This document shows positions 5,084-23,282 of a stretch of DNA of 64,000 nt, one piece after another. The notes beneath the pieces were generated by a model that saw only the letters and a program-made list of their open reading frames with translations, had not been told where the DNA came from and searched no databases. The translations under genes were made by a program, and so were the position numbers. Numbering within the stretch: the first letter of the stretch is position 1; the number at the start of each line of letters is the position of its first letter. The stretch comes from Giardia intestinalis (taxonomy: Eukaryota): assembly GCA_000002435.2 (NCBI GenBank), contig CM018790.1; one strand, written 5' to 3'.

Positions 5084-5187
5084 GAAGGGGCCAATTAATT
5101 TTTGGCCATTTACTCTGCTTCACCGAGGCTGGTTTGCCAGCTGCTATCCGAGCAAGTCTCACGCGAACTACCACTCCAAGCAAAGCC

Positions 5188-5212
5188 CAAGATCCAGAAT
5201 CTGAAAGTCGGA
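5188..5212 (+). repeat. 20-bp motif GATCCAGAATC(T/C)GAAA, copy 1.
   Basis: The sequence aagatccagaatctgaaagtcggattcc recurs at 22885-22906 in direct orientation and at 21775-21800 in reverse orientation (gatttcggattctggatctc). Confidence 0.6.
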
Positions 5213-5294
5213 TTCCATCCAGCTCTGGTGAGAAAAGAAGACTTTATTTTCATCTCCCTAGGAGCTGTTGCTATTCCTCCCAGCGCCTTCTAAG

Positions 5295-5445
5295 ACTTCC
5301 TCTTCCTCCGACCAGTTATGGGCAGCCAGGACTCAGTTCGCCTCTGCCAGCCAAGCACCCCAAGTCCTATTTCTTGTCGAGGGATTCACATGGGTCACGT
5401 GTGGGTCCGTCTGGACAGGCGGGGCGAGTGATTAGTGCCATCACT
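5295..5445 (-). repeat. Short dispersed repeat element of about 150 bp, copy A, in reverse orientation. The outer palindrome boundary falls inside it.
   Basis: The reverse complement of 5340-5445 reads ggcactaatcactcgccccgcctgtccagacggacccacacgtgacccatgtgaatccctcgacaag...ggctggcagaggcg, which is shared with 20925-21014 and 22997-23100. The outer 45 bp (5295-5340) is a diverged match to 23100-23140. Confidence 0.7.
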
Positions 5446-8400
5446 GGCTTCAAGCTCTCCGTTGCTCTGGGAGCTCCTTGAGACCGGCCAGGAAGGAGGC
5501 CTCCTGCCCCTCAGTGCTCTTACACCCAATGTTGACCGTCGAGCATAGCGCTTCGCTAGGTCTGTCGCCTCTGTGACTACCCTGTCGCGTCACTGTCATC
5601 GGCATGGGCAGTGAGTGGAGTATCTCCTTCAGCTCCTGGTGAGCAGGTTCTGTACCACGCAGTATGGGGGCATGCGCAGGGCCCCGAGGGACCGAGTCCA
5701 GGAGTGCAGCGCGTCCCAGCCGGAGGAAGGCCTCGACGCAGCTCCTCGGGACGGGGCACACTTGCCTGGGAGAGGCCGTCTGCTGTTGGGGCTCTCGTTA
5801 TGTCGAGCGAGGCCGCCGTGCCCATCAGCTTGTGTCTCCCTGTGCCATGCGAACACCACCCATGTGCAATCGGTGGAACGCAGTCTGCTCTGTCTCGAGG
5901 AAGGCCAGTGTCTGGGTCTCCAGGGGGCTCGGGACTGCCTTGTGGAGCGCATCATGATCGTCCCCTGATCGTGGTTGTCCTGTCTCGTTCTTGGGAAGAG
6001 GGCAGAACAAAAGTTCTTCTCCCGTCGGAGTCGCTTGGCACTTGAGTTCGAACTTTGGGTTTTGATCTTGGCCAATGCAGGGATGAGGGAGACCTGCTTC
6101 CCCAGAGCGGCGGTGGCTTGCATGGGAAGATCACTCAGATAGCAGGTGACAGCCCCACCCCGGCTAAAAAACTTGAGGCAGCCGTCGCGCCCGCCGCCCC
6201 CAGGACAGAGATTCTGCGTGCATGGCCAGCTGCCCTTGTCAGTTCGGTCTACTGGTCCGGTAGTCTGAGGACCTTCTGCGCCGCTTCTGATGTATGATGC
6301 ATCGCAACTGCTTATAGGGGTAAGCAGCATGAAAAGGCAATTGCATGTGTGGACATTGTACTATGACCGTCTCAGAGGGCCGAAGTCTCCAACTACAGAG
6401 CGCTGCACCGAGCAACACGCCCCACTGCCCTGCGCCGGTGGCTGCCTCCACCACCGTCTTCGTTGCACTTGGGCTGTGCCTGCCCAGCAGACTGAGCAGA
6501 GATTACAGAAGCTTCTCTAATAATGCACACACGCCGCATAAGGTCTGATGATGGAATGGACACCACCTGTCTGAGCTGTCTGCTATTGACGAGAGACAGC
6601 CCTTGGTTGCACTAGAGTGCTTTTGTTTAAGCATAAGGTCTTCGCACCTACTCCCCCATCAGCTATAGCGATAGCTGTATATCCAGAAGGGTCCTGCAGA
6701 GCGTTCCACCGTCTTTCAAGGTAAGGCATGGGCTCCATACCTATAGCTAAAAACAGAAATCCGTGCACCAAGTGTCACGAGTCTAGTATACTGACCGACC
6801 TGAATCGCAGTGCACTTGTCAAGGACCTGTGCACACGTTTGGATGCTCACTGCTAGTGGTAGACGGGCTTGTAAGGAAAATTGCTTCTGGTCGCGCTTGC
6901 CTTATAGTGTTTGATCCTGGGTGGCATGCCTCAGCAAAGGAAGATGCTATTTATATGCATAGAAGGCTATCCATGCACAGTGATTCCTGGAAAGCCGGTT
7001 CGCACGGAGAGGGTAGAGGCCATCAGCAAACCAGTGAGATACACCTGACGCTAGAGAGGCCAGCTACCGGCTCAGATTGCAGTGGTGACACTTGTAGTGC
7101 CCCTCTGACTTCTAAGCATGGAAACGTCACGGGGTCTGTGGGCAAACCGGACGCTCTTTTTGATTTTATACGTTTGTAGCAACGTAGTATTTATTGGGGT
7201 CTGCTTCGTCTGGAGTCGAGGAGGCTCGCTTTCTCTCCACATACAGATTAAGATCGATTGTAGGGGTATACTGTGCAGATCAGTACCAGTCAGTGTGGTC
7301 TCTGTCCACAGGTACCTCACTTGCGTCTTCCCGTGGCAGACATTCACCAACAACACCTCCGGCCTGTGTGGTGTTCTACAGTGTACCTTCACCTTCGACC
7401 AAGGGGCTGGTACACACGTTACGTAATTTAGATTGCTCATCAGTCAGGGTGGTATGGTCCGCTCTTGTTCTCCACTTGCATATCTCGTATAACCTGCTGA
7501 TAGCCTTTCCAGATTAGTATGCAGATGCTTCTATCGGTCCTGTAAGGCATGCGTCATGTAGGTAACCATTACAGGCCAGAGTCCTGTCTGCTAAGGAAAA
7601 GAACCACCAGTTTACCATGTGGACATCCGTTGTGCTCTCCAGTATCTCCTCGCCAGCCGCCATCTAGTTCTCCCTGCCGTTTGGAGCCCGTATGTATATT
7701 GTTACTGACAAGCACTTGGTTTCAATGGGCCCCTGGGACGTTAAGCACTTTACCCTGTGCAGTGGGTATGTTCAATGTGGGAGATACACAATCAGCATTG
7801 ACTTTCTCACTCATTGTTTGTGTAATTATTGTTGCTTCTTAGTCTAATTAGCAACCCAGATCATGGCCTCCAGTGTAGTGGTATTCTACCAACAGACAGC
7901 TGGCAGTGACTGTGGCACGTACTTTCATCAAGACACAGCCACCTGAGCAGGGGTATGAAATGGGTCCTTGTTATTCTACGATTCTGCTAATTCCTCAGAT
8001 AGCAGGGATCAGAGCAGCTTATTGTTAGTATTGACTATCTCCGTGTCTCCATTTATCTTCGTCGCTTGAGATACGCTTGACTCCAAAGACTCGAAAAGGT
8101 GCTATACTGTGCTCAGATCTGCGAGTCTCAATTAAGTAAGGCTACCATCTCGGTGGCTGCGCTGAGGTAGCTACACACCTTGTGGGCTCTGCAAGGTGCA
8201 TTACAGCCCAATGGAACCCTTACCTATCGAATGCAGGCCGCAATGCAGCCTCGCTGGTGCACGATTTCTTAAGATGACTGATCAATCCGCAGAGTCCACC
8301 CTACTCATGTAGAGCCAGCGATAGATGACGATATCAACCCTGTAGATAATCTACACTGTACATCAGTGGTCCTATAGGTAAGTAAGGGTCAGCCATCCCG

Positions 8401-9916
8401 CAGTAATGAGCATTAGCGGTGTCTTTCCCAAGAATAAATGGGCGAGTTGTCAGCAGTCACAACATCCGCTTTCTCAATGAAGACCGCCCTGCCACTGAGG
8501 CCCAGGCCAGTCTCCTATAAGATCCTTGACAAGATTGTATCCAAGATGTATATCTATGGTGCTCCCCGACTCAAGGTGTATGCTGCTGAACCTCCCATTT
8601 CTCGTATCAGCTTATGAATATCGATGTCCCTGCCTCTAGCAGAATTGTATTAGAAATAATATGAGATATGGCGCCTTCAGTCGGGTTGTTCGGATTCCCA
8701 GCTGCACAACGGGGGCCCACTTTCGTATTGTGCATCAGAAAGACATGTCATGCCGTAATGATGCAACCTTTCGTATGGTATAATTCTTGCGTCAAGAGAT
8801 AGGGCACTTGTATCGATCGGCATATCTACCCATGGCCAGTTATAGCTTGGACCAAAGGTCACAAACGAACGCTATCTAACTCCCTTATCAACAGACGGGA
8901 GATCTGACCATCCTTCTGCCTCACACAAAGCCACAAAGGATTCTAGATCAGGATTTCGGCCAGTAGCTGGCAAGTCATTATACTCTCCTGGATTTCTGCT
9001 CCCTCTACTATAGGTATCCACATGTAGGAAGCTCTGAGGGCCTAAAGTCCTACACCAATAGGCTCAGGGTACTGCAAACCCAGGTGTTTTCACTAGTGGT
9101 GGTAGTGATGGTCTCAAGATGATCCAGAAGGGATGACAGGAGTCCTGGTCAATCAACTTAGAAGGTGGCACGGCTTGGTCAGTGATTCTCCTTGTCCAGA
9201 TGCGGGACTGCTTGTCTGCGCCTTCTAAGCTTCACATGGCATCCCGTCATGCGATAGGATATCTTAATAATATTCATTAAAAAAGGCCAGAAATGACACA
9301 CTGTACATCCAACAGACTGCTGCACCTTATTATCTAATCTTTGCCGGTTCACACCTTCCACAAACCCCAGTGGTTGCTGCGATCTTCTCTTAGGATCTCG
9401 TAGGGGTCTTTCATTAAGGGAGGCTCCCCTGTGACGACCAGAGGTCGCAGACATAATCCAAAGGGATGCGAATGCTACGGAGGCGGAGAGAAGGTCATCG
9501 GCGCACGGGGGTCCGCAGGGGCCCGACCCGTCCAGGGAAAGCACAGGGAGCTGGCTTATCAGAGACGCAAAGACGCCAGGAGAAAAGCCAGCAACGAACC
9601 CACGGCACAGTGGAGGCACTCGAGCCGTCCTTTGATTGGCCGCAGGGCAGAGAGGCGGCAAGCGTGTGGAGAGGTCTCACCACTTATTTTTGGATTTTCT
9701 GTTTCCCTGCGTGTTGTGCAGGGAGCATGGGGTTCAGACCCAGGGAGCTCGCGTGGGCTGTATGCAGTAGATGTGCTTAGTATTCGATGAGCTTCTATGC
9801 CCTAAGCAGAGGTATCGTAGAAGACGAATCTCTTTGGATTAATTAGCATAGTGTAGTCAGGTCTTTAGTCTTAAGTATCTTATTCTTACTTATACGACAA
9901 GCTGAGAAGGACCTCA

Positions 9917-11803
9917 ATGTTGCTGGTAGTTTTCTACTTTGTGCTGAGTGCTCTTGCGGGAGCATGTACTGTTGAGGCTAACACACGAGATTGTACAGAG
10001 AATAAGTGCGAAATGGTTGGCGAAACAGAAATCTGTACACAATGCAAGACGGGCGGAAATGTTCCCATTGATGGAGTGTGTAAGGCGGTTGCTGAGGCCG
10101 CCAATAAGTGTACGAAGAGCGATGACAATCCGGTAGGCGCAGGAGATACGACTTGTGGAAAATGCGTAAACGCATACTTCATGTACAAAGGCGGATGTTA
10201 TCTGGCCGGTGCAGCTGGACCGGGTACTGGTACTAAAATGTGCAAGCAGGCTGCTGGTGGCAAGTGTACGCAAGCTGCTGATGCGAAGAACTACTTCATT
10301 CCACCAGCAAATACAGACGATACTCATGATTCTGTCGTTTGGTGCGGTGATGAAATAGGCGTAACACTTAGTAGTACTCAGTATAAGGGTGTTGCTAAGT
10401 GCCTAGTATGTGATGCTCCCGGTGGGGCTGGTGCTGCAACGTGCACAACCTGTGAAGACGGGTACTTTGGTGCTACTTGTAAAAAATGCCATGAAAGTTG
10501 TAGGACATGTGAAGCTGCAGAAGAGAATAAGTGCAAGTCGTGTACAGATGGCTACTTCCTTGGAGCAACCAATGGAGCCGCAGGTAAGTGCCTTAAGTGT
10601 AACTCTAAAACAGAGGAAGGCTGGCACGGAGTTGACAACTGTGCTAAGTGCACGTCATCTAATACGCAAAACACCCCTGCGACATGCACTGAATGCGTTG
10701 CAAATTTCTATCTAAAACCAGCCGCGGGTGCAACTCCTTCTAGTTGCGTCACAGAAACGGGGTGCGGTGACGGATACTTCCCAACTATTGTTGATGAGAT
10801 CAAGAAATGTATCGCTTGCGGTACAGCTGCAAATGGTGGCATAGATGACTGCAAAAAGTGTTCTCTCAAAACAACGTCTGCGAAGGCAGGAATAGAGATC
10901 GTATGCACTGAATGTAATACTAAATGGCTCAGTCCTCTAGGAGACGCATGTTTGGATAGCTGTCCTCCTGGAACACATGCTGATTCTGGCAATATTTGTC
11001 CTTTATGTCATAGCACATGTGCAGAGTGTGATGGCAATGCAGAAGCCACATCGTGCAGAGCATGTTATCCCGGATTTGTGCTGAGTTATGGCAGCGATAA
11101 AGTCAGAGGCACATGTATTCAAGAATGTACCGGCAAATACGCAGAAAATTGTGAAGAAAATATGTGTACGGCTGTCCTTGGAGGCTCCAAGTATTGTAGC
11201 AAGTGTAAGGCCGGATTCGTTCCAATAGATGGTGTCTGTGTATCGACAGCTTCACGAGCAGTAACCGGATGTACGCCAGGAAATGGAGTATGCATTGCAT
11301 GTACAGACTCATACTTCTTACAGTCTGGAGGATGCTATCAGTCGACAGTGTTTCCTGGTAATAAGCTGTGTACACTAGCTAGTAATGGAAAGTGTACAGC
11401 ATGCTCCAACGGGCAAACAGCAGATGGTCAAGGTTCGTGCCCAGCGTGTAATGCCATCTGTGCAACATGTGCGGCAGGAAATATAGACCAATGCCAAACT
11501 TGCTTCCCTGGATACTATAAATCCGGAACTAAGTGCGTAAAATGTAGCATTACTGACAACGGAATAACTGGTGTAGAGAACTGCATAAGCTGTGCCCCTC
11601 CAGCTGGTAATAGTGGTCCTGTCACTTGCTATATGAAGACAGATGACACTAACGATGGTGGTAACGACAACAACGGCGGAAGCACGAACAAGAGCGGGCT
11701 CTCCACAGGGGCCATCGCGGGGATCTCCGTGGCTGTGATTGTTGTTGTAGGTGGTCTCATAGGCTTCTTGTGTTGGTGGTTCATATGTAGAGGGAAGGCG
11801 TAA
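9917..11803 (+). CDS. vsp: Variant-specific surface protein (VSP), 628 aa, copy 1.
   Basis: The ATG is at 9917. The product has an N-terminal signal peptide (MLLVVFYFVLSALAGA), many CXXC motifs, GGCY motifs (KGGCYLAG, QSGGCYQS), and a single C-terminal transmembrane helix (AIAGISVAVIVVVGGLIGFLCWWFI). It ends in the invariant Giardia VSP tail CRGKA, and the stop codon TAA is embedded in ACTTAGGTAGTAAAC. Confidence 0.92.
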   Translation: MLLVVFYFVLSALAGACTVEANTRDCTENKCEMVGETEICTQCKTGGNVPIDGVCKAVAEAANKCTKSDDNPVGAGDTTCGKCVNAYFMYKGGCYLAGAAGPGTGTKMCKQAAGGKCTQAADAKNYFIPPANTDDTHDSVVWCGDEIGVTLSSTQYKGVAKCLVCDAPGGAGAATCTTCEDGYFGATCKKCHESCRTCEAAEENKCKSCTDGYFLGATNGAAGKCLKCNSKTEEGWHGVDNCAKCTSSNTQNTPATCTECVANFYLKPAAGATPSSCVTETGCGDGYFPTIVDEIKKCIACGTAANGGIDDCKKCSLKTTSAKAGIEIVCTECNTKWLSPLGDACLDSCPPGTHADSGNICPLCHSTCAECDGNAEATSCRACYPGFVLSYGSDKVRGTCIQECTGKYAENCEENMCTAVLGGSKYCSKCKAGFVPIDGVCVSTASRAVTGCTPGNGVCIACTDSYFLQSGGCYQSTVFPGNKLCTLASNGKCTACSNGQTADGQGSCPACNAICATCAAGNIDQCQTCFPGYYKSGTKCVKCSITDNGITGVENCISCAPPAGNSGPVTCYMKTDDTNDGGNDNNGGSTNKSGLSTGAIAGISVAVIVVVGGLIGFLCWWFICRGKA

Positions 11804-11817
11804 CTTAGGTAGTAAAC
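11803..11817 (+). promoter_or_regulatory. VSP-type extended polyadenylation signal ACTTAGGTAGTAAAC overlapping the stop codon.
   Basis: The sequence acttaggtagtaaac begins at the last base of the TAA stop. It matches the vsp extended poly(A) signal consensus as I recall it (ACTYAGRTAGTRAAY), and it contains the general Giardia AGTRAAY poly(A) motif. Confidence 0.6.
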
Positions 11818-14536
11818 GCGTTACTTTATGTAACCTATGTAGATGTGCTGCTGGGGCTATCTGAGCGCGGTCCAGAGATCGTGTGGGTAATCATCGCTCC
11901 TTCCTGACCAGTCCAGAGACGATGGCTGGTTGTGAATAATATAACGAGAGAATCCTCTCCAGTGATACCTCCAGAGCCTGGTGCATTCCTCAATCATTTC
12001 GTGGGCGTGTGCTCAGACCGAATGCGTACATCGGTCCTTTAGGGGTTCAGGCCCTCTTGCAGACTCTCTGATCCGCCGGCGCCTCTCCTTGGTCTGCCGC
12101 CTTGGTGGATGAGGCTTGGGTCGCTGTCTTTTTTAGATGCCCCCATCTGTCAGAGGGCTGCCCTCGGGCTCTCTTCTGGCCGCCCCTCGGTGTCCGTCCG
12201 GCTGTGGCCCGGGCAGTGCTTCTACAGTCGCGGTCACTTGGGTATCAGCGGGCCAGCTGGTGGGCGAGGCGGGGTTGGTGAGGCTGGAGGGGACTGGTGG
12301 GGGCTGAGGTGGGCGGTGTTGTATGCGCCCCTGACCTCTTGGTGAGTGGGGTGATCGCAGCTGTTATGACTGGGGGCTGTCCATCTGTGACTCATCCCTC
12401 TGTGTGCTCGTGGTCTGTGAGTGCCTCCACCCAGACAACCCTCAGGAGCCGGAGAGTGGTGCCAGCCTAGCTGTCCTCCCTCCTCGGTGCCTCCCAGTGC
12501 AGACTCACCGGAGGCCACTACCCTGTCAGCCACCCGAAGGAGCCGTGCACGCCGGGACAGAGAGAGTGACCAAGGGGAGTCAAGCAGCCCTGCCATGAGA
12601 GTGCACAGCAACCAGCCTGGACTGTATGGGCTGCTCGAACAGTGGTAGTGGCAGACGACTCCCTCTGACAGCAGCCCTGATGACGGCACTGGCCTGCTCT
12701 TGAGACTGAATGACAGTGAACACAGACGGACATGAGCGCAGGAGGACCATCCACACACGAACAGACTGTGTGGACCCAGAGAGGACTAGGGTCTGCTCAG
12801 ACACACGCTGACTGTGCCCCATACGAGAGTACCAGGCAACCACCCGAGCACCCGAGAGGCAGGTACAGCCACGGGCACTAGAGATCCCCAGCCAGACACA
12901 TTGCCATGCTCATCCACAGGGGCATCAGAGGGCCAGGTGGGGTCACTCTCACAATCAGGGGCCTGATAGGAAGCCAGAGGACCCGAGCAGCACAGCACAG
13001 CAGGCCCAAGGGAGGCACACTCCAGGCAGGTGAGCAGTGGCAGAGCCTTGACAGCTGCCAGCCCCCCATGACACCCAGGCAGGCACCAGACTCCGAAGAC
13101 TCGCTGGCCTCCACCTATGACCCGAGAGGGCAGCAACCAGAGGAGCGAGGAGGCCTTCGGATGACACAAGAGGCCGGCTGTCCAGCGGGCGATGGAGCAC
13201 AGGTGGCCTCTGAGCACCATAAGGCACAGGACTGACCATCAGAGTGATGCCCGGTCACAGAGACGACCACGAGCACCCTCCACCCACTCTGAGGGGCTGT
13301 CGATCATTCACTGCCTCTCATAGCAGACCTCCTTAAGGGCAGTGCAGTGGGTCCCAGCTCATGCAGGAGGGTGCACACCCCTCAGTATAGGACACCCCGA
13401 CTCTCCCCGAGGGGTCATCAGAGCCATGAGAGGTGTCAAGGTCCTGATAGATCACACCGGGAACCCCTCGAATGGGCACAGCAGGTGAGGTATGGGTGAC
13501 CCCAGCGTGCTCCTCTCTGCATGGTAGAGCATCCTGAGACCAAGGGGGTCACCTCTGCCTACGGATAATACACAGCACTCCATGACAAGGACCCACCAGG
13601 AGCAGCACAGCTGACCACGGGGACAGTGCAGTCACCAGTGCCCCACCGTGCCAGTCTTCTGGGCCATCACACTAGAGGCACGAGAGAACCCCATCCCATC
13701 CACCGGCTCATCTATGCCCCTGCTGGCCCGAGGTGAACTAACCTTGTCGAGGCACTGGACAGGGCATGCCAGGGGGCCCAGCAGACCCGCACAGAGCAAC
13801 AGGAGGGGCTGCGATGGCCTGCCTCACCCTTCACGCACCAGCCAGACAGAGCAGCAGTACTGCCTGAGACATGCAGGGGCTAAGGGAGGCGCTCAGTCGG
13901 GGGACACGACACGATCGTCGGTGCCTCTGTCTCGGGAGTGCAACGCAGGCTGGTGATCAGACACAACCACCTTAGCAAACAGAGCGGGGATCACCCACCA
14001 CCGCAATGACCCACCGGACCCAGGGGCGCATACAACACCGCCCACCTCAGCCCCCACCAGTCCCCTCCAGCCTCACCAACCCCGCCTCGCCCACCAGCTG
14101 GCCCGCTGATACCCAAGTGACCGCGACTGTAGAAGCACTGCCCGGGCCACAGCCGGACGGACACCGAGGGGCGGCCAGAAGAGAGCCCGAGGGCAGCCCT
14201 CTGACAGATGGGGGCATCTAAAAAAGACAGCGACCCAAGCCTCATCCACCAAGGCGGCAGACCAAGGAGAGGCGCCGGCGGATCAGAGAGTCTGCAAGAG
14301 GGCCTGAACCCCTAAAGGACCGATGTACGCATTCGGTCTGAGCACACGCCCACGAAATGATTGAGGAATGCACCAGGCTCTGGAGGTATCACTGGAGAGG
14401 ATTCTCTCGTTATATTATTCACAACCAGCCATCGTCTCTGGACTGGTCAGGAAGGAGCGATGATTACCCACACGATCTCTGGACCGCGCTCAGATAGCCC
14501 CAGCAGCACATCTACATAGGTTACATAAAGTAACGC

Positions 14537-14551
14537 GTTTACTACCTAAGT
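14537..14551 (-). promoter_or_regulatory. VSP-type extended polyadenylation signal of VSP copy 2, the mirror image of 11803-11817.
   Basis: It is the reverse complement of the same 15-mer, located at the 3' end of the minus-strand VSP. Confidence 0.6.
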
Positions 14552-16437
14552 TACGCCTTCCCTCTACATATGAACCACCAACACAAGAAGCCTATGAGAC
14601 CACCTACAACAACAATCACAGCCACGGAGATCCCCGCGATGGCCCCTGTGGAGAGCCCGCTCTTGTTCGTGCTTCCGCCGTTGTTGTCGTTACCACCATC
14701 GTTAGTGTCATCTGTCTTCATATAGCAAGTGACAGGACCACTATTACCAGCTGGAGGGGCACAGCTTATGCAGTTCTCTACACCAGTTATTCCGTTGTCA
14801 GTAATGCTACATTTTACGCACTTAGTTCCGGATTTATAGTATCCAGGGAAGCAAGTTTGGCATTGGTCTATATTTCCTGCCGCACATGTTGCACAGATGG
14901 CATTACACGCTGGGCACGAACCTTGACCATCTGCTGTTTGCCCGTTGGAGCATGCTGTACACTTTCCATTACTAGCTAGTGTACACAGCTTATTACCAGG
15001 AAACACTGTCGACTGATAGCATCCTCCAGACTGTAAGAAGTATGAGTCTGTACATGCAATGCATACTCCATTTCCTGGCGTACATCCGGTTACTGCTCGT
15101 GAAGCTGTCGATACACAGACACCATCTATTGGAACGAATCCGGCCTTACACTTGCTACAATACTTGGAGCCTCCAAGGACAGCCGTACACATATTTTCTT
15201 CACAATTTTCTGCGTATTTGCCGGTACATTCTTGAATACATGTGCCTCTGACTTTATCGCTGCCATAACTCAGCACAAATCCGGGATAACATGCTCTGCA
15301 CGATGTGGCTTCTGCATTGCCATCACACTCTGCACATGTGCTATGACATAAAGGACAAATATTGCCAGAATCAGCATGTGTTCCAGGAGGACAGCTATCC
15401 AAACATGCGTCTCCTAGAGGACTGAGCCATTTAGTATTACATTCAGTGCATACGATCTCTATTCCTGCCTTCGCAGACGTTGTTTTGAGAGAACACTTTT
15501 TGCAGTCATCTATGCCACCATTTGCAGCTGTACCGCAAGCGATACATTTCTTGATCTCATCAACAATAGTTGGGAAGTATCCGTCACCGCACCCCGTTTC
15601 TGTGACGCAACTAGAAGGAGTTGCACCCGCGGCTGGTTTTAGATAGAAATTTGCAACGCATTCAGTGCATGTCGCAGGGGTGTTTTGCGTATTAGATGAC
15701 GTGCACTTAGCACAGTTGTCAACTCCGTGCCAGCCTTCCTCTGTTTTAGAGTTACACTTAAGGCACTTACCTGCGGCTCCATTGGTTGCTCCAAGGAAGT
15801 AGCCATCTGTACACGACTTGCACTTATTCTCTTCTGCAGCTTCACATGTCCTACAACTTTCATGGCATTTTTTACAAGTAGCACCAAAGTACCCGTCTTC
15901 ACAGGTTGTGCACGTTGCAGCACCAGCCCCACCGGGAGCATCACATACTAGGCACTTAGCAACACCCTTATACTGAGTACTACTAAGTGTTACGCCTATT
16001 TCATCACCGCACCAAACGACAGAATCATGAGTATCGTCTGTATTTGCTGGTGGAATGAAGTAGTTCTTCGCATCAGCAGCTTGCGTACACTTGCCACCAG
16101 CAGCCTGCTTGCACATTTTAGTACCAGTACCCGGTCCAGCTGCACCGGCCAGATAACATCCGCCTTTGTACATGAAGTATGCGTTTACGCATTTTCCACA
16201 AGTCGTATCTCCTGCGCCTACCGGATTGTCATCGCTCTTCGTACACTTATTGGCGGCCTCAGCAACCGCCTTACACACTCCATCAATGGGAACATTTCCG
16301 CCCGTCTTGCATTGTGTACAGATTTCTGTTTCGCCAACCATTTCGCACTTATTCTCTGTACAATCTCGTGTGTTAGCCTCAACAGTACATGCTCCCGCAA
16401 GAGCACTCAGCACAAAGTAGAAAACTACCAGCAACAT
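14551..16437 (-). CDS. vsp: Variant-specific surface protein (VSP), 628 aa, copy 2. Its amino-acid sequence is identical to copy 1, and the two genes converge.
   Basis: It is the mirror image of 9917..11803 within the palindrome. The translation is 100% identical, including the CRGKA terminus. Confidence 0.92.
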   Translation of the reverse strand: MLLVVFYFVLSALAGACTVEANTRDCTENKCEMVGETEICTQCKTGGNVPIDGVCKAVAEAANKCTKSDDNPVGAGDTTCGKCVNAYFMYKGGCYLAGAAGPGTGTKMCKQAAGGKCTQAADAKNYFIPPANTDDTHDSVVWCGDEIGVTLSSTQYKGVAKCLVCDAPGGAGAATCTTCEDGYFGATCKKCHESCRTCEAAEENKCKSCTDGYFLGATNGAAGKCLKCNSKTEEGWHGVDNCAKCTSSNTQNTPATCTECVANFYLKPAAGATPSSCVTETGCGDGYFPTIVDEIKKCIACGTAANGGIDDCKKCSLKTTSAKAGIEIVCTECNTKWLSPLGDACLDSCPPGTHADSGNICPLCHSTCAECDGNAEATSCRACYPGFVLSYGSDKVRGTCIQECTGKYAENCEENMCTAVLGGSKYCSKCKAGFVPIDGVCVSTASRAVTGCTPGNGVCIACTDSYFLQSGGCYQSTVFPGNKLCTLASNGKCTACSNGQTADGQGSCPACNAICATCAAGNIDQCQTCFPGYYKSGTKCVKCSITDNGITGVENCISCAPPAGNSGPVTCYMKTDDTNDGGNDNNGGSTNKSGLSTGAIAGISVAVIVVVGGLIGFLCWWFICRGKA

Positions 16438-19400
16438 TGAGGTCCTTCTCAGCTTGTCGTATAAGTAAGAATAAGATACTTAAGACTAAAGACCTGACTA
16501 CACTATGCTAATTAATCCAAAGAGATTCGTCTTCTACGATACCTCTGCTTAGGGCATAGAAGCTCATCGAATACTAAGCACATCTACTGCATACAGCCCA
16601 CGCGAGCTCCCTGGGTCTGAACCCCATGCTCCCTGCACAACACGCAGGGAAACAGAAAATCCAAAAATAAGTGGTGAGACCTCTCCACACGCTTGCCGCC
16701 TCTCTGCCCTGCGGCCAATCAAAGGACGGCTCGAGTGCCTCCACTGTGCCGTGGGTTCGTTGCTGGCTTTTCTCCTGGCGTCTTTGCGTCTCTGATAAGC
16801 CAGCTCCCTGTGCTTTCCCTGGACGGGTCGGGCCCCTGCGGACCCCCGTGCGCCGATGACCTTCTCTCCGCCTCCGTAGCATTCGCATCCCTTTGGATTA
16901 TGTCTGCGACCTCTGGTCGTCACAGGGGAGCCTCCCTTAATGAAAGACCCCTACGAGATCCTAAGAGAAGATCGCAGCAACCACTGGGGTTTGTGGAAGG
17001 TGTGAACCGGCAAAGATTAGATAATAAGGTGCAGCAGTCTGTTGGATGTACAGTGTGTCATTTCTGGCCTTTTTTAATGAATATTATTAAGATATCCTAT
17101 CGCATGACGGGATGCCATGTGAAGCTTAGAAGGCGCAGACAAGCAGTCCCGCATCTGGACAAGGAGAATCACTGACCAAGCCGTGCCACCTTCTAAGTTG
17201 ATTGACCAGGACTCCTGTCATCCCTTCTGGATCATCTTGAGACCATCACTACCACCACTAGTGAAAACACCTGGGTTTGCAGTACCCTGAGCCTATTGGT
17301 GTAGGACTTTAGGCCCTCAGAGCTTCCTACATGTGGATACCTATAGTAGAGGGAGCAGAAATCCAGGAGAGTATAATGACTTGCCAGCTACTGGCCGAAA
17401 TCCTGATCTAGAATCCTTTGTGGCTTTGTGTGAGGCAGAAGGATGGTCAGATCTCCCGTCTGTTGATAAGGGAGTTAGATAGCGTTCGTTTGTGACCTTT
17501 GGTCCAAGCTATAACTGGCCATGGGTAGATATGCCGATCGATACAAGTGCCCTATCTCTTGACGCAAGAATTATACCATACGAAAGGTTGCATCATTACG
17601 GCATGACATGTCTTTCTGATGCACAATACGAAAGTGGGCCCCCGTTGTGCAGCTGGGAATCCGAACAACCCGACTGAAGGCGCCATATCTCATATTATTT
17701 CTAATACAATTCTGCTAGAGGCAGGGACATCGATATTCATAAGCTGATACGAGAAATGGGAGGTTCAGCAGCATACACCTTGAGTCGGGGAGCACCATAG
17801 ATATACATCTTGGATACAATCTTGTCAAGGATCTTATAGGAGACTGGCCTGGGCCTCAGTGGCAGGGCGGTCTTCATTGAGAAAGCGGATGTTGTGACTG
17901 CTGACAACTCGCCCATTTATTCTTGGGAAAGACACCGCTAATGCTCATTACTGCGGGATGGCTGACCCTTACTTACCTATAGGACCACTGATGTACAGTG
18001 TAGATTATCTACAGGGTTGATATCGTCATCTATCGCTGGCTCTACATGAGTAGGGTGGACTCTGCGGATTGATCAGTCATCTTAAGAAATCGTGCACCAG
18101 CGAGGCTGCATTGCGGCCTGCATTCGATAGGTAAGGGTTCCATTGGGCTGTAATGCACCTTGCAGAGCCCACAAGGTGTGTAGCTACCTCAGCGCAGCCA
18201 CCGAGATGGTAGCCTTACTTAATTGAGACTCGCAGATCTGAGCACAGTATAGCACCTTTTCGAGTCTTTGGAGTCAAGCGTATCTCAAGCGACGAAGATA
18301 AATGGAGACACGGAGATAGTCAATACTAACAATAAGCTGCTCTGATCCCTGCTATCTGAGGAATTAGCAGAATCGTAGAATAACAAGGACCCATTTCATA
18401 CCCCTGCTCAGGTGGCTGTGTCTTGATGAAAGTACGTGCCACAGTCACTGCCAGCTGTCTGTTGGTAGAATACCACTACACTGGAGGCCATGATCTGGGT
18501 TGCTAATTAGACTAAGAAGCAACAATAATTACACAAACAATGAGTGAGAAAGTCAATGCTGATTGTGTATCTCCCACATTGAACATACCCACTGCACAGG
18601 GTAAAGTGCTTAACGTCCCAGGGGCCCATTGAAACCAAGTGCTTGTCAGTAACAATATACATACGGGCTCCAAACGGCAGGGAGAACTAGATGGCGGCTG
18701 GCGAGGAGATACTGGAGAGCACAACGGATGTCCACATGGTAAACTGGTGGTTCTTTTCCTTAGCAGACAGGACTCTGGCCTGTAATGGTTACCTACATGA
18801 CGCATGCCTTACAGGACCGATAGAAGCATCTGCATACTAATCTGGAAAGGCTATCAGCAGGTTATACGAGATATGCAAGTGGAGAACAAGAGCGGACCAT
18901 ACCACCCTGACTGATGAGCAATCTAAATTACGTAACGTGTGTACCAGCCCCTTGGTCGAAGGTGAAGGTACACTGTAGAACACCACACAGGCCGGAGGTG
19001 TTGTTGGTGAATGTCTGCCACGGGAAGACGCAAGTGAGGTACCTGTGGACAGAGACCACACTGACTGGTACTGATCTGCACAGTATACCCCTACAATCGA
19101 TCTTAATCTGTATGTGGAGAGAAAGCGAGCCTCCTCGACTCCAGACGAAGCAGACCCCAATAAATACTACGTTGCTACAAACGTATAAAATCAAAAAGAG
19201 CGTCCGGTTTGCCCACAGACCCCGTGACGTTTCCATGCTTAGAAGTCAGAGGGGCACTACAAGTGTCACCACTGCAATCTGAGCCGGTAGCTGGCCTCTC
19301 TAGCGTCAGGTGTATCTCACTGGTTTGCTGATGGCCTCTACCCTCTCCGTGCGAACCGGCTTTCCAGGAATCACTGTGCATGGATAGCCTTCTATGCATA

Positions 19401-20924
19401 TAAATAGCATCTTCCTTTGCTGAGGCATGCCACCCAGGATCAAACACTATAAGGCAAGCGCGACCAGAAGCAATTTTCCTTACAAGCCCGTCTACCACTA
19501 GCAGTGAGCATCCAAACGTGTGCACAGGTCCTTGACAAGTGCACTGCGATTCAGGTCGGTCAGTATACTAGACTCGTGACACTTGGTGCACGGATTTCTG
19601 TTTTTAGCTATAGGTATGGAGCCCATGCCTTACCTTGAAAGACGGTGGAACGCTCTGCAGGACCCTTCTGGATATACAGCTATCGCTATAGCTGATGGGG
19701 GAGTAGGTGCGAAGACCTTATGCTTAAACAAAAGCACTCTAGTGCAACCAAGGGCTGTCTCTCGTCAATAGCAGACAGCTCAGACAGGTGGTGTCCATTC
19801 CATCATCAGACCTTATGCGGCGTGTGTGCATTATTAGAGAAGCTTCTGTAATCTCTGCTCAGTCTGCTGGGCAGGCACAGCCCAAGTGCAACGAAGACGG
19901 TGGTGGAGGCAGCCACCGGCGCAGGGCAGTGGGGCGTGTTGCTCGGTGCAGCGCTCTGTAGTTGGAGACTTCGGCCCTCTGAGACGGTCATAGTACAATG
20001 TCCACACATGCAATTGCCTTTTCATGCTGCTTACCCCTATAAGCAGTTGCGATGCATCATACATCAGAAGCGGCGCAGAAGGTCCTCAGACTACCGGACC
20101 AGTAGACCGAACTGACAAGGGCAGCTGGCCATGCACGCAGAATCTCTGTCCTGGGGGCGGCGGGCGCGACGGCTGCCTCAAGTTTTTTAGCCGGGGTGGG
20201 GCTGTCACCTGCTATCTGAGTGATCTTCCCATGCAAGCTACCGCCGCTCTGGGGAAGCAGGTCTCCCTCATCCCTGCATTGGCCAAGATCAAAACCCAAA
20301 GTTCGAACTCAAGTGCCAAGCGACTCCGACGGGAGAAGAACTTTTGTTCTGCCCTCTTCCCAAGAACGAGACAGGACAACCACGATCAGGGGACGATCAT
20401 GATGCGCTCCACAAGGCAGTCCCGAGCCCCCTGGAGACCCAGACACTGGCCTTCCTCGAGACAGAGCAGACTGCGTTCCACCGATTGCACATGGGTGGTG
20501 TTCGCATGGCACAGGGAGACACAAGCTGATGGGTACAGCGGTCTTGCTCGACATAACGAGAGCCCCAACAGCAGACGGCCTCTCCCAGGCAAGTGTGCCC
20601 CGTCCCGAGGAGCTGCGTCGAGGCCTTCCTCCGGCTGGGACGCGCTGCACTCCTGGACTCGGTCCCTCGGGGCCCTGCGCATGCCCCCATACTGCGTGGT
20701 ACAGAACCTGCTCACCAGGAGCTGAAGGAGATACTCCACTCACTGCCCATGCCGATGACAGTGACGCGACAGGGTAGTCACAGAGGCGACAGACCTAGCG
20801 AAGCGCTATGCTCGACGGTCAACATTGGGTGTAAGAGCACTGAGGGGCAGGAGGCCTCCTTCCTGGCCGGTCTCAAGGAGCTCCCAGAGCAACGGAGAGC
20901 TTGAAGCCAGTGATGGCACTAATC

Positions 20925-21063
20925 ACTCGCCCCGCCTGTCCAGACGGACCCACACGTGACCCATGTGAATCCCTCGACAAGAAATAGGACTTGGGGTGCT
21001 TGGCTGGCAGAGGCGGACTGATCCTAACCGCACCGAAGAGTGGAGGCCTGGACCACCTGCCGG
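20925..21063 (+). repeat. Short dispersed repeat element, copy B, at the right outer boundary of the palindrome.
   Basis: ggcactaatcactcgcc...ggcagaggcggactgatcctaaccgcaccgaagagtggaggcctggaccacctgccggg matches 22997-23150 along its whole length with scattered mismatches. The match continues about 50 bp beyond the point where palindrome identity ends at 21014. Confidence 0.75.
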
Positions 21064-21774
21064 GGGTCTGCCGCAGCAGCTGGCAGTGCCTGACACCCTC
21101 GAGTAGACGGGCGCCGGTTGTAGAGAGAGACGGCCTGACGGTGAACCGGTCCTGATCGCTCGTGATGCTTCGGATGACACCCTTCAGAGAGGTGGCCCTG
21201 GACCGACGCCTCAGCAGACCGAAGCATCACCCCAAGCGTGCTGTGCGGTGCAGATGGACCAGCTCATACGTCATTGAGCCAGACGCACTGCATAGAATGA
21301 TGCGCCGACACGATCTCGTACTGGGTGACTGGCCACCTGTAAGAGCGCACTGCGATCCATGAGCAGAGGGGTGGGCCTCCTCCCCCGACACCACCGCATG
21401 GGATTACTCCATCGGCATCCATGAACGCATACTATGACTCCAAGACAGAGGCGCAGGGGGAGCACACCCTTGATAATGGAACAGATGGTGCCCTCCACGA
21501 GGAGGCGAAGAGGCACCCGAGGAACGGGGCAGGCACCCGGGGTCGTGGCGTGGGATCTTCGTCATGGAGCACCAGCACCAGGGCCACGTGGAGGCCAGAT
21601 CGCCGCGACAGACGCAAGACCTGAGATAGCAGGTGCTCAATAGATGTCAGACGATGGTTGACCCCGACGGGCCAGAGGAAGGAAAGTCCTAGGGGGCACC
21701 GCGAGGAGCGGCAGGGACTCCCGAGAGGCAGAGCAAAGTTCCTTCTTCTTCTCCCATCGGAATCGCTACATCCG

Positions 21775-21800
21775 ATCTCAGATTTCGGATTCTGGATCTC
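21775..21800 (-). repeat. 20-bp motif GAGATCCAGAATCCGAAATC, copy 2, in reverse orientation, just 3' of the ankyrin gene.
   Basis: atctcagatttcggattctggatctc is the reverse complement of the motif at 22885-22906. Confidence 0.6.
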
Positions 21801-21832
21801 AACCGATGCAGGGACGGGAGGTACTTGTTTGT

Positions 21833-22591
21833 TCAGGGCGGCGACTCGCACGGGGGATTTACTTGGACAGCAACTAGCAAACTAATCTCAGTGAAACAGG
21901 GTAAACATTGTGATATGATCAGCAAGTAGGCGAGTTCACTCACAAGTTTCCTAGGCTGCATCTGTAAGTATGGATCTACAATACCCTCACTCTCGAGAAA
22001 AGATGCTACCTCGGAGTGATTCCATCTATTGGCCGTACGGATGGCATGTACGCCACCTATGTCCTTCTCCTTCTCCAGTAGCAACTTGACACACTCCAGA
22101 TGATCATGCCCTGCTGCAAGCACGAGGGCAGTAAAACCTCTGCCTTTCTGCATGCCTCCCTCAGCATCCAGGAGTAGTCTCACGACCTCGGTGCGGCCAA
22201 AATGTGCCGCCCACATGAGGGCTGTCCATCCATTACTGCTCCTCATACCGCTCTCGCACCTCATCAGCAGCTTCACCACTCTGGTGTGTCCGAGCACCGC
22301 AGCAACCATCAGGGCCGTCCCCCCACTTATGTCTTTCCTCCCTGCCTTGACAAGCTTCGCCACCATCCTTGCCTGATAAGGGATGTAGCGCTTCACCGCC
22401 TTCACGTCGTTTCGGTTGGCTGCCTTCATAAGCGTGGTGACCCCGTTCTCGTCCACGCTGCCTTCATCATCCATTTCTGAAGGCTCAGTTGGGTTTCCTG
22501 CGCCCTCTTCGCTCGTGTCCCTTTCGGGCATGAGGGGTGGGGCGCAGTCGCACTCCTGAAGGAGTTGACCTAAATCATCCGCAGACGACAT
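21833..22591 (-). CDS. Ankyrin-repeat protein of the Giardia Protein 21.1 type, 252 aa.
   Basis: The ATG is at 22589-22591. The product has at least four ankyrin repeats (GTALMVAAVLGHTRVVKLLM, GWTALMWAAHFGRTEVVRLLL, GFTALVLAAGHDHLECVKLLL and TTLMKAANRNDVKAVKRYI) and an acidic N-terminus. Confidence 0.75.
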   Translation of the reverse strand: MSSADDLGQLLQECDCAPPLMPERDTSEEGAGNPTEPSEMDDEGSVDENGVTTLMKAANRNDVKAVKRYIPYQARMVAKLVKAGRKDISGGTALMVAAVLGHTRVVKLLMRCESGMRSSNGWTALMWAAHFGRTEVVRLLLDAEGGMQKGRGFTALVLAAGHDHLECVKLLLEKEKDIGGVHAIRTANRWNHSEVASFLESEGIVDPYLQMQPRKLVSELAYLLIISQCLPCFTEISLLVAVQVNPPCESPP

Positions 22592-22884
22592 TTTTACTGC
22601 GGGTCACATAGAGCTCGTGTGTCAGTACGCCTGCAATTCCTGGGCCTCTTGCAGCGCATCCAGATGGCGCATCATACAAAGACTGCACCCCTTGAATTCC
22701 TTCCGTCGCCCCTGCTATGTGTAGCAAGGTGCAATGGAGTGACCTTCGGCCGTGGCGTCAGGCACGCTGTGAACAGAAGAGTTCATTCTGCTTCCTCTGG
22801 TTGGTTTGTCAGCTGTTGCCTGAACAGGTCCTCCATGCGAGCCGCCGCCGCCCCAGGCTGGCAGTCTCTCGCTCGCTCACCAGC

Positions 22885-22906
22885 CGAGATCCAGAATCCG
22901 AAATCA
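22885..22906 (+). repeat. 20-bp motif GAGATCCAGAATCCGAAATC, copy 3, lying 90 bp upstream of dispersed element C.
   Basis: gagatccagaatccgaaatcag is present here. Confidence 0.6.
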
Positions 22907-22994
22907 GAAGGTCAGATATCGTCCAGTTCTGACGGGGAAGATCTGTGCCTCCTCCCCGAGGCGGTAGCGAGTACAGATGAGCGTTCGAGGCTGG

Positions 22995-23150
22995 TAATGG
23001 CACTAATCACTCGCCACGCTGGTCGAGATGGACCCACACGTGACCCATATGAATCCCTCGACAAGAGATGGGGCCCCTGGGGTGTCTGGCTGGCAGAGGC
23101 GGACTGATCCTGACCGCACTGAAGAGTGGTGGCGGCCTGGGCCACCTACC
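22995..23150 (+). repeat. Short dispersed repeat element, copy C, in the intergenic region upstream of the ankyrin gene.
   Basis: It aligns directly with 20925-21063 (see copy B). Confidence 0.75.
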
Positions 23151-23282
23151 GGGCATCTATATTGGTGAAACAGGGTAAGTTCTCTTCGCTGAACACCAAA
23201 TATAAGACCCATGCGCAGTGTTCCTCAAAGCGAACAAGGTTTGCTGGCATCAAGAAGAATATCGTCATGAGTAATATGCAGT

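Follow-up and report, generated by a model that had tools for sequence, protein, structure and literature searches.

The stretch of Giardia intestinalis DNA considered here (64,000 nucleotides, hereafter the window) holds two identical, oppositely oriented VSP genes in the arms of a near-perfect palindrome, which raises the question of what lies at the outer ends of such a structure and how its arms are kept alike. Identical inverted vsp pairs of WB, such as the vsp1267 pair, have been described (Adam et al. 2010, PMC2996952; Xu et al. 2020, PMC7000408), and those arranged tail to tail have abrupt divergence points (PMC2996952; PMC7000408); identical pairs also caused premature contig ends (PMC2996952). 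The locus in the window is the tail-to-tail VSP pair GL50803_0011521/d11521 on WB chromosome 2, given as d11521/11521, chromosome 2, 628 aa and 2747 bp in Table 2 of Xu 2020 (PMC7000408). The pair itself is thus already known, and Table 5 of Adam et al. lists 5' divergence points for none of the tail-to-tail pairs (PMC2996952); here, the 5' divergence point falls in a repeat unit, at an indel. The palindrome is composed as follows.

5333..12333: left palindrome arm, 7,001 nt, mismatched with the right arm at 5338, 5809, 5812, 5817, 5820 and 6115
9917..11803, plus strand: VSP gene of the left arm, 628 aa, Pfam VSP at 1.8e-91, CRGKA tail
12334..14020: unique spacer between the arms, 1,687 nt, GC 62% in the 2-kb interval 12001-14000
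14551..16437, minus strand: VSP gene of the right arm, identical copy (100% over 628 aa)
14021..21021: right palindrome arm, 7,001 nt

The two inverted VSP ORFs lie tail to tail with 2,747 bp between them. Their inner divergence occurs 530 nt past the stop codon, where identity also ends for vsp126, the entry of Adam's Table 5 that this locus matches (PMC2996952); the outer (5') divergence occurs at 5333/21021, which is inside the repeat unit, at an indel and 4,584 nt upstream of the start codon. An identical inverted vsp pair of Giardia was defined by ORFs with a signal peptide, a CXXC-rich ectodomain, a transmembrane segment and a CRGKA tail that are identical, inverted and 2.4-3.2 kb apart, and the locus presents all the features tested, from the VSP ORFs and the inverted identity to the abrupt divergence of the flanks. 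The arms differ at 6 positions in 7,001 nt (99.9% identity), and over 6,155 nt they agree at 100%. All six mismatches fall in the outermost 846 nt, the part of the arm made of the repeat unit, a clustering with a probability of about 3e-6 for six independent events and of 1.8e-3 if they are counted as three.

An earlier note on this DNA had placed the outer ends of the palindrome inside a 150-bp element, which is confirmed for the arms delimited above, and had set beside it a separate 20-bp motif. In fact, the two are blocks, here E and M, of one composite non-coding repeat unit, U, with the layout M> (x) E (y) <M, in which the M blocks form imperfect inverted ends that are about 65-75% alike. 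E measures about 140-190 nt and M about 200-245 nt, and the unit ranges from 0.4 to 1.75 kb. A search with nhmmer found five copies of M and three of E in the 64-kb window, and none beyond these.

5110-6178, minus strand: U1, mirror partner of U2 at the outer arm end
5107..5329, plus strand: M_A, outer M of U1 (nhmmer E=2.8e-51), with a degenerate motif at 5189-5208 (16/20)
5333..5467, minus strand: E_L, left-arm element, truncated at the arm boundary and directly abutting M_A (compact E/M' junction)
5986..6172, minus strand: M_L, inner M of U1, within the arm (nhmmer E=6.8e-39)
20176-21910: U2, mirror partner of U1 at the outer arm end, in opposite orientation
20182..20368, plus strand: M_R, inner M of U2, within the arm (nhmmer E=7.8e-39)
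20369..20885, plus strand: segment x, from M to E, in U1 and U2, missing from U3 and from contigs L003 and L006
20886..21075, plus strand: E_R, full-length element (nhmmer E=5e-58), with the arm boundary 21021 inside it
21026..21654, plus strand: segment y, about 630 bp, present right and missing left, its left end being the end of arm identity
21654..21907, minus strand: M_B, outer M of U2 (nhmmer E=2.5e-59), with the exact 20-mer at 21781-21800
22762-23199: U3, third copy, internally deleted, 0.85 kb beyond U2
22780..22980, plus strand: M_C, M of U3 (nhmmer E=2.8e-43), with the exact 20-mer at 22886-22905
22970..23161, plus strand: E_C, third element copy (nhmmer E=5e-60), directly abutting M_C
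23165..23178, minus strand: GTGAAACAGGGTAA, outer terminus left over from an inverted M, closing U3

The three copies of the element recorded earlier were recovered, at 5322-5459 (minus strand), 20895-21069 and 22979-23158. The second and third share 83% identity over 180 nt (E=1e-42), and the first, read from 5459 to 5322, is the palindromic twin of the second, so that the independent copies of E are only two. The 20-mer is exact at 21781-21800 (minus strand) and 22886-22905 (plus strand), with a chance expectation of 0, but the left copy agrees at only 16 of 20 positions; moreover, the motif is not a separate 20-mer but the core of M, a block with five copies, including two within the arms that had been overlooked. 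As for GTGAAACAGGGTAA, its sole other copy in the window, at 21891, is the outer end of M_B, and a match of at least 14 nt arose in 0 of 2000 shuffles. None of the papers found describes U.

The presence of related blocks at several sites could reflect a function of the sequence itself. It is conceivable, but in our view very improbable, that E or M functions as a non-coding RNA or regulates in cis, for instance as a small-RNA precursor acting on vsp expression, and that this function explains the conservation. The core of E is recognizable in seven copies, and its minus strand can form an 11-bp hairpin, GGAUUCACAUG-GGUCA-CGUGUGGGUCC, which is 98.7% paired across copies, two substitutions retaining the pairing through G-U. 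However, no compensatory pair occurs among the seven sequences, shuffled controls equal the observed values, and the folding z-score is -2.07 for the minus strand of the right copy against -0.50 to +0.88 for the other five folds. Conservation in E does not exceed that of the remainder of U. Rfam covariance models gave no match at the gathering score in the whole window and nothing on E or M at E values up to 10.

Even less credit, close to none, is given to the reading of U as a decayed family of protein-coding genes, with a 233-aa ORF (20024-20725) and ORFs of 162, 139 and 115 aa as candidates. Gene callers do place ORFs across the U blocks in several contigs (P0001-P0007), but all seven related ORF clusters (3 + 4) are translations of the same DNA, indels are frequent and the open frame varies between copies; a short ORF beginning MALITR is broken in the arm copy, its changes being mostly at second codon positions. 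Substitutions in U between WB and the contigs show no 3-periodicity (p=0.14-0.73, compared with 5e-32 and 4e-59 in the neighbouring genes), and Pfam, applied to 10 ORFs from arm, spacer and U at E values up to 0.1 and to 9 ORFs at E values up to 0.01, gave no match.

Returning to the boundary, the identity of the arms ends where U1 is without the 630-bp segment y, which in U2 stands between E and the outer M. The sequence immediately past the left boundary is block M and not E; the earlier suggestion that the diverged outer 45 bp of the left copy still belong to the same element was not borne out (local alignment score of 6, null 6.6 +/- 1.1). Homology nevertheless continues in mirror fashion on the far side of the indel: the reverse complement of the left flank (5328 to 5109) aligns, from the boundary itself, with the right flank at 21655-21905, with a score of 36 versus a null of 11.4 +/- 1.3, and the symmetry reaches 5110/21910 at about 66% identity, interrupted by the 630-bp indel, which begins at the boundary of the arms. 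Arms of 99.9% identity adjoin mirror-homologous sequence of about 66%, and the motif copies on the two sides are, as the earlier note had observed, mirror-symmetric with unequal spacing.

Relatives of U were found in short metagenomic contigs (L001-L006), which were assigned to Giardia by similarity alone and may be orthologues or paralogues of the WB copies. Four of them, from four metagenome samples (L002, L004, L005 and L006), are collinear with WB across the right boundary, from E into y; the collinearity extends through y in the first three and over its first 250 nt or so in L006. Another contig, L003, crosses a junction of the left type, where E runs directly into M', and since it is without segment x it is no simple orthologue of U1. 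Both outer junctions therefore occur in diverged contigs, and neither is a novel breakpoint produced by the formation of the palindrome.

With moderate confidence, we read U as low-copy inverted repeats that limit the arm-to-arm homogenization of the vsp palindrome. According to the mechanism that we propose, the oppositely oriented U1 and U2 would bound the palindrome at its outer ends, and arm-to-arm homologous exchange (gene conversion) would hold the arms near-identical from the spacer outwards. Exchange would halt where U1 and U2 lose collinearity, with y in U2 and a direct E-M join in U1, and past that point the outer M blocks would drift to about 66% identity; the inverted M blocks may also act as substrates for inversion. 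We infer that conversion, and not one recent event, maintains the identity of the arms, and that the heterology stops the conversion.

One recent event of inverted re-duplication, primed in U, would be expected to leave a nearly identical picture. The palindrome would then be young, with U only as the donor of homology, which we regard as rather unlikely; the route would be equally so, namely that an inverted U already stood on the left and that a replication end, once broken or stalled, changed template within E/x/M and copied the right vsp region as an inverted repeat. Consistent with such an event, 6,155 nt per arm are free of differences and the mismatches all lie in U, as in a zone of heteroduplex or patchy repair at a recombination joint, both outer junctions pre-exist in other genomes, and the M copies are roughly equidistant, as expected of U copies older than the palindrome. 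On the other hand, WB has at least 19 identical inverted vsp pairs, the tail-to-tail ones being alike in geometry with 2.5-2.8 kb between the ORFs, which argues for a maintained state over many coincidentally recent events, and a recent duplication leaves unexplained the former content between U1 and the spacer.

The earlier note had offered two alternatives, a homogenized core of an older, larger inverted structure and a repeat that supplied the homology for the duplication, the latter being the recent duplication just discussed, and these are mutually compatible. The first is supported by the mirror homology past the boundary, the clustering of the mismatches and the pre-existing outer junctions. 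As to the age of the structure, M_A and M_B are no closer to each other than either is to the other M copies (64-75%), and because of this an older palindrome is indistinguishable from two independently placed copies of U.

The homogenization that we favor has a parallel in the palindromes of primate sex chromosomes, whose arms are kept identical through arm-to-arm gene conversion. The locus shares with them arms more than 99.9% identical, a unique spacer, differences concentrated towards the outer edge and, further out, mirror homology that has diverged; it differs in organism and in scale (7 kb here versus 10 kb to Mb), and conversion is here deduced from the pattern. A second parallel is with low-copy inverted repeats through which non-allelic homologous recombination produces inversions, as inverted M blocks here flank a 1.4-kb segment. 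In contig L001, the first half of a hybrid M is 93% identical to M_R and 60% to M_B, the second half 62% and 77%, respectively, and the block then runs into the reverse complement of the right flank, joining the 1.4-kb segment, flipped, to the same left flank. Judging from these identities, the hybrid fits the product expected from recombination between inverted M copies. Different from such repeats, M copies share only about 65% identity, which is little for homologous recombination to be efficient, and the putative inversion is read from one 1.2-kb metagenomic contig.

The flanks of duplicated vsp pairs have been reported to be alike genome-wide and have been called relics of transposable elements (bioRxiv 10.1101/2022.03.07.483299). 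Different from that retrotransposon-relic account, in which E and M are not named, the ORFs of the arm, spacer and U hold no reverse-transcriptase or other Pfam domain. The candidate of a non-LTR retrotransposon relic (GilM/GilT/GilD) found no support at the protein level, no remnant of a reverse-transcriptase or endonuclease ORF being detected by Pfam.

U1, the palindrome, U2, a copy of an ankyrin gene and U3 all belong to one block. Another lineage (contigs L007 and L008) is without this block at the orthologous site, and there the ORF319 orthologue and the WD-repeat gene adjoin. L007 matches the window at 24314-23352 with its positions 8968-9935 and at 5109-3 with its positions 10044-15156. 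The junctions were aligned base by base.

2..5080, minus strand: WD-repeat (IFT122/WDR19-like) gene, conserved, left neighbour of the insertion, extending beyond the window
5106..5109, plus strand: CCAT, left 4-bp direct repeat (empty site TTTTTGCCATGCACATCGCAG; WB left junction TTTTTGGCCAT/TTACTCTG)
5110..23207: lineage-specific insertion, 18,098 bp
21833..22591, minus strand: ankyrin repeat protein 1 (XP_001705551.1), 252 aa
23208..23211, plus strand: CCAT, right 4-bp direct repeat (WB right junction ATAAGAC/CCATGCGCAGTG)
23283..24242, minus strand: ORF319, conserved, right neighbour of the insertion, with strong codon periodicity (p=5e-32)

The claim that the element forms a short dispersed repeat family is only partly right: its blocks are parts of one unit and, in the window, are confined to this single 18-kb insertion, and one further M appears to lie elsewhere. 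The last 24 codons of the ankyrin ORF lie in M_B, homology of this ORF to the canonical 221-aa paralogues covers 21918-22702, and the protein tail of the paralogue XP_001708476.1 suggests a further copy of M beside its gene on another WB chromosome (chromosome 5). That putative copy includes the ankyrin 3' end and shares the ankyrin flank.

It could also be hypothesized that U belongs among the non-autonomous mobile DNA elements resembling foldbacks or MITEs, M being its terminal inverted repeats, and that such elements delivered or nucleated the 18-kb block as a composite insertion, a reading to which we attach little probability. The likeness lies in the long imperfect inverted ends, the variable interior, the lack of coding capacity and the sharp common terminus beside unrelated flanks. 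M is inverted at both ends of U1 and U2, the right-hand M of U3 being a 14-nt terminal remnant, and the presence of the internal segments x and y varies. At a minimum of four places, the outer terminus of M, TTTAC[C/T]CTG[T/C]TTCAC, borders on unrelated DNA, namely the WD-gene promoter, the ankyrin 3' end, the region upstream of the ankyrin gene and that downstream of ORF319; the CCAT-flanked block that the other lineage is missing has exactly an M terminus as its left end, and the putative M on chromosome 5 adds a further site. However, the right M remnant lies 29 nt inside CCAT, and microhomology-mediated joining also leaves a 4-bp repeat. U has neither a consistent target-site duplication, none being seen around U2 or U3 singly, nor a known autonomous partner, and no transposase, reverse-transcriptase or endonuclease remnant was found as a Pfam domain in the ORFs of the arm, spacer and U. 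The blocks are limited to this one island in the 64 kb, and the chromosome 5 copy carries the ankyrin 3' end and thus resembles a segmental duplication and not a transposition. To our knowledge, no DNA transposon has been described in Giardia. Were M, as we doubt, the terminal inverted repeat of a previously unrecognized foldback-type mobile or recombinogenic element of Giardia, and the 18-kb island a composite insertion, elements of this kind would serve to deliver, bound and rearrange vsp cassettes, and other identical vsp pairs would likewise have their outer ends within copies of U.

The window carries two VSP genes arranged tail to tail, with 2,747 bp between them and with the arm identity ending, on the inner side, 530 nt beyond the VSP stop codon.

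9917-11803, plus strand: VSP ORF (Pfam VSP, 1.8e-91), with a signal peptide and a CRGKA tail in its translation
14551-16437, minus strand: twin VSP ORF, 100% identical to 9917-11803 (+)

These values agree with those that Adam et al. 2010 (PMC2996952) give for vsp126 in their Table 5 (530 nt and 2,748 bp) and that Xu et al. 2020 (PMC7000408) give in their Table 2 for d11521/11521, a pair on chromosome 2 (628 aa and 2,747 bp). Therefore, the palindrome itself is a documented kind of structure, and the point to judge at this locus is the short repeats at the palindrome ends. In the same table of Xu et al. 2020 (PMC7000408), 2.5-2.8 kb separate the ORFs of tail-to-tail vsp pairs, a spacing which suggests that a spacer and 3' flank family is common to the pairs. 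Here, the spacer (12334-14020) lies within a GC-rich stretch (62% over 12001-14000) with a positive AT skew.

We confirmed the presence of three copies of the 150-bp element described in the earlier note (hereafter E), at 5459-5322 (-), 20895-21069 (+) and 22979-23158 (+). Since the first two (L and R) belong to opposite arms of one palindrome, there are only two independent copies; R and the third copy (C) are 83% identical over 180 nt. As for the separate 20-bp motif, the copies at 21781-21800 (-) and 22886-22905 (+) are exact, with none expected by chance, while the left copy, at 5189-5208, matches at only 16 of 20 positions. This 20-mer is the most conserved part of a homology block of about 200-245 nt (M), every pair of whose copies is significantly similar (z = 6 to 21, identity 64-75%). 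Profile searches of the 64-kb window returned exactly three copies of E and five of M, the latter on both strands.

5107-5329, plus strand: M
6172-5986, minus strand: M
20182-20368, plus strand: M (M_R, the inner M of U2)
21907-21654, minus strand: M (M_B, the outer M of U2)
22780-22980, plus strand: M

These blocks are arranged as three copies of a composite unit, U, with the layout M, x, E, y and inverted M.

5110-6178, opposite orientation to U2: U1, consisting of M, x, E and inverted M, without y
20176-21910: U2, consisting of M, then x of about 0.5 kb, E, y of about 0.63 kb and inverted M
22762-23199: U3, consisting of M followed directly by E, the first 50 nt of y and only the terminal 14 nt of the inverted M

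The terminal 14-mer of U3, GTGAAACAGGGTAA, has its sole other occurrence in the window at the outer end of M_B, and a match of that length was found in 0 of 2,000 shuffles. A full-text literature search for sequence strings drawn from E and M returned no papers, and a scan for the E core, at 25 specified bases, through JGI metagenome contigs gave 0 matches, which is uninformative for copy number.

U1 and U2 are mirror partners at the outer ends of the palindrome arms.

5333-12333: left arm, 7,001 nt
12334-14020: spacer, unique, 1,687 nt
14021-21021: right arm, 7,001 nt
21026-21654: segment y, 630 bp, present on the right side only

The arms differ at six positions (5338, 5809, 5812, 5817, 5820 and 6115 of the left arm), all of which fall within the part of the arm belonging to U (846 of 7,001 nt), the other 6,155 nt being identical; the probability of this clustering is about 3e-6 if the differences represent six independent events and 1.8e-3 if they represent three. 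At five of the six, the left arm has C/G where the right arm has T/A, and four (5809-5820) lie within 12 nt, resembling a single short patch. The start of the y indel is the exact end of the 99.9% arm identity, so that the outer palindrome boundary is resolved to the base; by this indel the two inverted copies of U, a non-coding repeat that none of the papers examined describes, differ from each other. Furthermore, the reverse complement of the left flank, from 5328 down to 5109, aligns with 21655-21905 (score 36 versus a null of 11.4 +/- 1.3, identity about 66%), so the mirror symmetry extends to 5110 on the left and 21910 on the right, at the outer M termini. The earlier note's claim that, left of the boundary, the outer 45 bp of E can be recognised did not survive alignment (score 6 versus a null of 6.6 +/- 1.1); in the comparison of R with C the outer stretch scored 29.

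The earlier note had proposed either that the palindrome is the homogenised core of an older, larger inverted structure or that the repeat supplied the homology for the inverted duplication. The evidence favours the former: the perfect palindrome would be that part of a larger mirror structure which has been homogenised, with inverted copies of U as the ends of the whole, and homogenisation between the arms would halt where segment y makes the two sides heterologous. The less probable alternative is one recent re-duplication that was primed in an inverted U copy already in place; it accounts equally well for the mismatches being confined to U.

Sequences related to U lie on six short contigs (L001 to L006), which come from six ENA metagenome samples and are attributed to Giardia only on the basis of similarity. 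Over their longest matches, these contigs share 69-86% identity with the window, and short blocks reach 93%. At the protein level, searches with the ORFs overlapping U returned only seven ORF clusters (3 + 4), all translations of the same DNA. The right-hand boundary is crossed collinearly, from E into y, in L002, L004, L005 and L006, and in L003 M, E and inverted M touch directly, with the same E/inverted M junction as at the left-hand boundary; therefore, neither outer junction of the palindrome is a new breakpoint. The segments x and y occur in all four combinations (both in U2, x alone in U1, y alone in L006, neither in L003), which implies exchange among U copies or recurrent deletion. 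From 19307 as far as the middle of M_R, L001 matches the right arm; beyond that point it corresponds to the right flank in reverse complement. Its M is a hybrid, with a first half 93% identical to M_R and 60% to M_B and a second half 62% identical to M_R and 77% to M_B, as would be expected if the two M blocks of U2, which are inverted relative to each other, had recombined. Comparison of L001 868-1199 with window positions 20185-20368 and 21907-21555 suggests that another lineage carries the 1.4-kb interior of U2 in inverted orientation. About 340 nt of the window (19900-20240, mirrored at 6114-6454) are roughly 97-99% identical to L001 580-925, with flanks at about 75-80%; this block, which has no Rfam match and takes in both the beginning of a 233-aa ORF and M_R's first half, may be an element under constraint or may mark a recent tract of conversion or introgression.

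The most fitting view of U is that of non-coding DNA, with no sign of a function of its own in these comparisons. Substitutions between WB and the contigs show no three-base periodicity in U (p = 0.14-0.73), compared with p = 5e-32 and 4e-59 for two conserved flanking genes, ORF319 on the right and a WD-repeat gene on the left. Open reading frames differ between U copies, no Pfam domain was found in ORFs of U, the arm and the spacer, and between WB and the contigs E is no more conserved than its surroundings, with frequent indels. A 36-aa ORF within E (MALITR...) was discarded, being broken in the arm copy and in L006 and with changes mainly at second positions. The whole window gave no Rfam match at the gathering threshold and nothing on E or M at E-values up to 10. 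The minus-strand hairpin of E is nearly always pairable, with no compensatory change and a level not above shuffled controls; in a candidate extended outer stem, the 3' side varies against an invariant 5' side, so there is no covariation. A box C/D snoRNA (GUGAUGG ... CUGA) was likewise rejected, without Rfam support and with GUAAUGG in copy C. The RNA hypothesis for E and M would come back into play if GGAUUCACAUGGGUCACGUGUGGGUCC were found to yield a discrete small RNA.

The left flank is occupied by the large WD-repeat gene, whose AT-rich promoter directly abuts the outer end of M.

2-5080, minus strand: WD-repeat gene, IFT122/WDR19-like, running off the left end of the window

Orthologues of this gene were found on Logan assemblies of Giardia sequencing runs. 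In two of these contigs, L007 and L008 (78-81% nucleotide identity), whose assemblage is deduced from divergence only, the ORF319 orthologue lies immediately beside it, and base-level alignment showed that window positions 5110-23207 (18,098 bp, comprising U1, the palindrome, U2, an ankyrin gene and U3) are absent. The empty site, at L007 9936-10043, reads TTTTTGCCATGCACATCGCAG and contains CCAT once, versus a copy on both sides of the block in WB, forming a 4-bp direct repeat. The left end of the block is exactly an M terminus, and at the right end an M remnant lies 29 nt inside CCAT. As judged from these alignments, the whole vsp island is a clean 18.1-kb insertion between two conserved genes. 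The empty site of L007 was also considered as a relative of the M terminus, but after re-alignment this apparent similarity is better explained by orthology with WB native intergenic DNA. In a third lineage, contig L009 ends 74 nt upstream of the WD-gene start codon (L009 1-74), the position of the WB island boundary, which is consistent with a repeat or island there too. A tblastn search of the flanks found no ankyrin or VSP pseudogenes.

A mobile-element origin of U or of the island is suggested by the inverted M ends, by the sharp terminus that the copies have in common where they adjoin unrelated DNA, and by the 4-bp repeat at the clean insertion; however, there are no consistent target-site duplications and no coding capacity, and the copy counts of U cover the 64-kb window. 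A preprint (10.1101/2022.03.07.483299) describes the flanks of duplicated vsp pairs as alike genome-wide and terms them transposon relics; no reverse-transcriptase signal was found at this locus. The Giardia literature examined (including PMC2996952 and PMC7000408) catalogues identical inverted vsp pairs and does not account for the determinants of the arm ends or the entry of the cassette. If U, or the rule of a boundary at a heterology, held at the other 19-20 pairs, it would provide a testable account of vsp duplication, identity upkeep and rearrangement; if limited to this locus, U would be an ordinary local low-copy repeat.

The ankyrin ORF in the island corresponds to XP_001705551.1 of G. 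intestinalis WB, whose contig is 1,539,535 bp long. Contig L010 has a gene 91.5% identical to the segment 21918-22702; its neighbourhood is different, and neither M nor E occurs within 12 kb of it. In XP_001705551.1 the canonical stop position (TAA in L010) is TAC, and readthrough into M_B (21833-21925, minus strand) adds about 30 residues, giving 252 aa versus the canonical 221-223 aa. We rejected M as the native 3' end of an ankyrin subfamily, as canonical paralogues end at 221 aa, L010 lacks M within 12 kb and the P15 paralogues have long tails that match the DNA downstream in L010 itself, not M. The WB paralogue XP_001708476.1, from a contig 4,018,654 bp in length, has a still longer M-encoded tail, which over 88 aa shares 92% identity with the translated stretch 21955-21692; therefore, at least one further ankyrin-plus-M copy is present on another WB chromosome.
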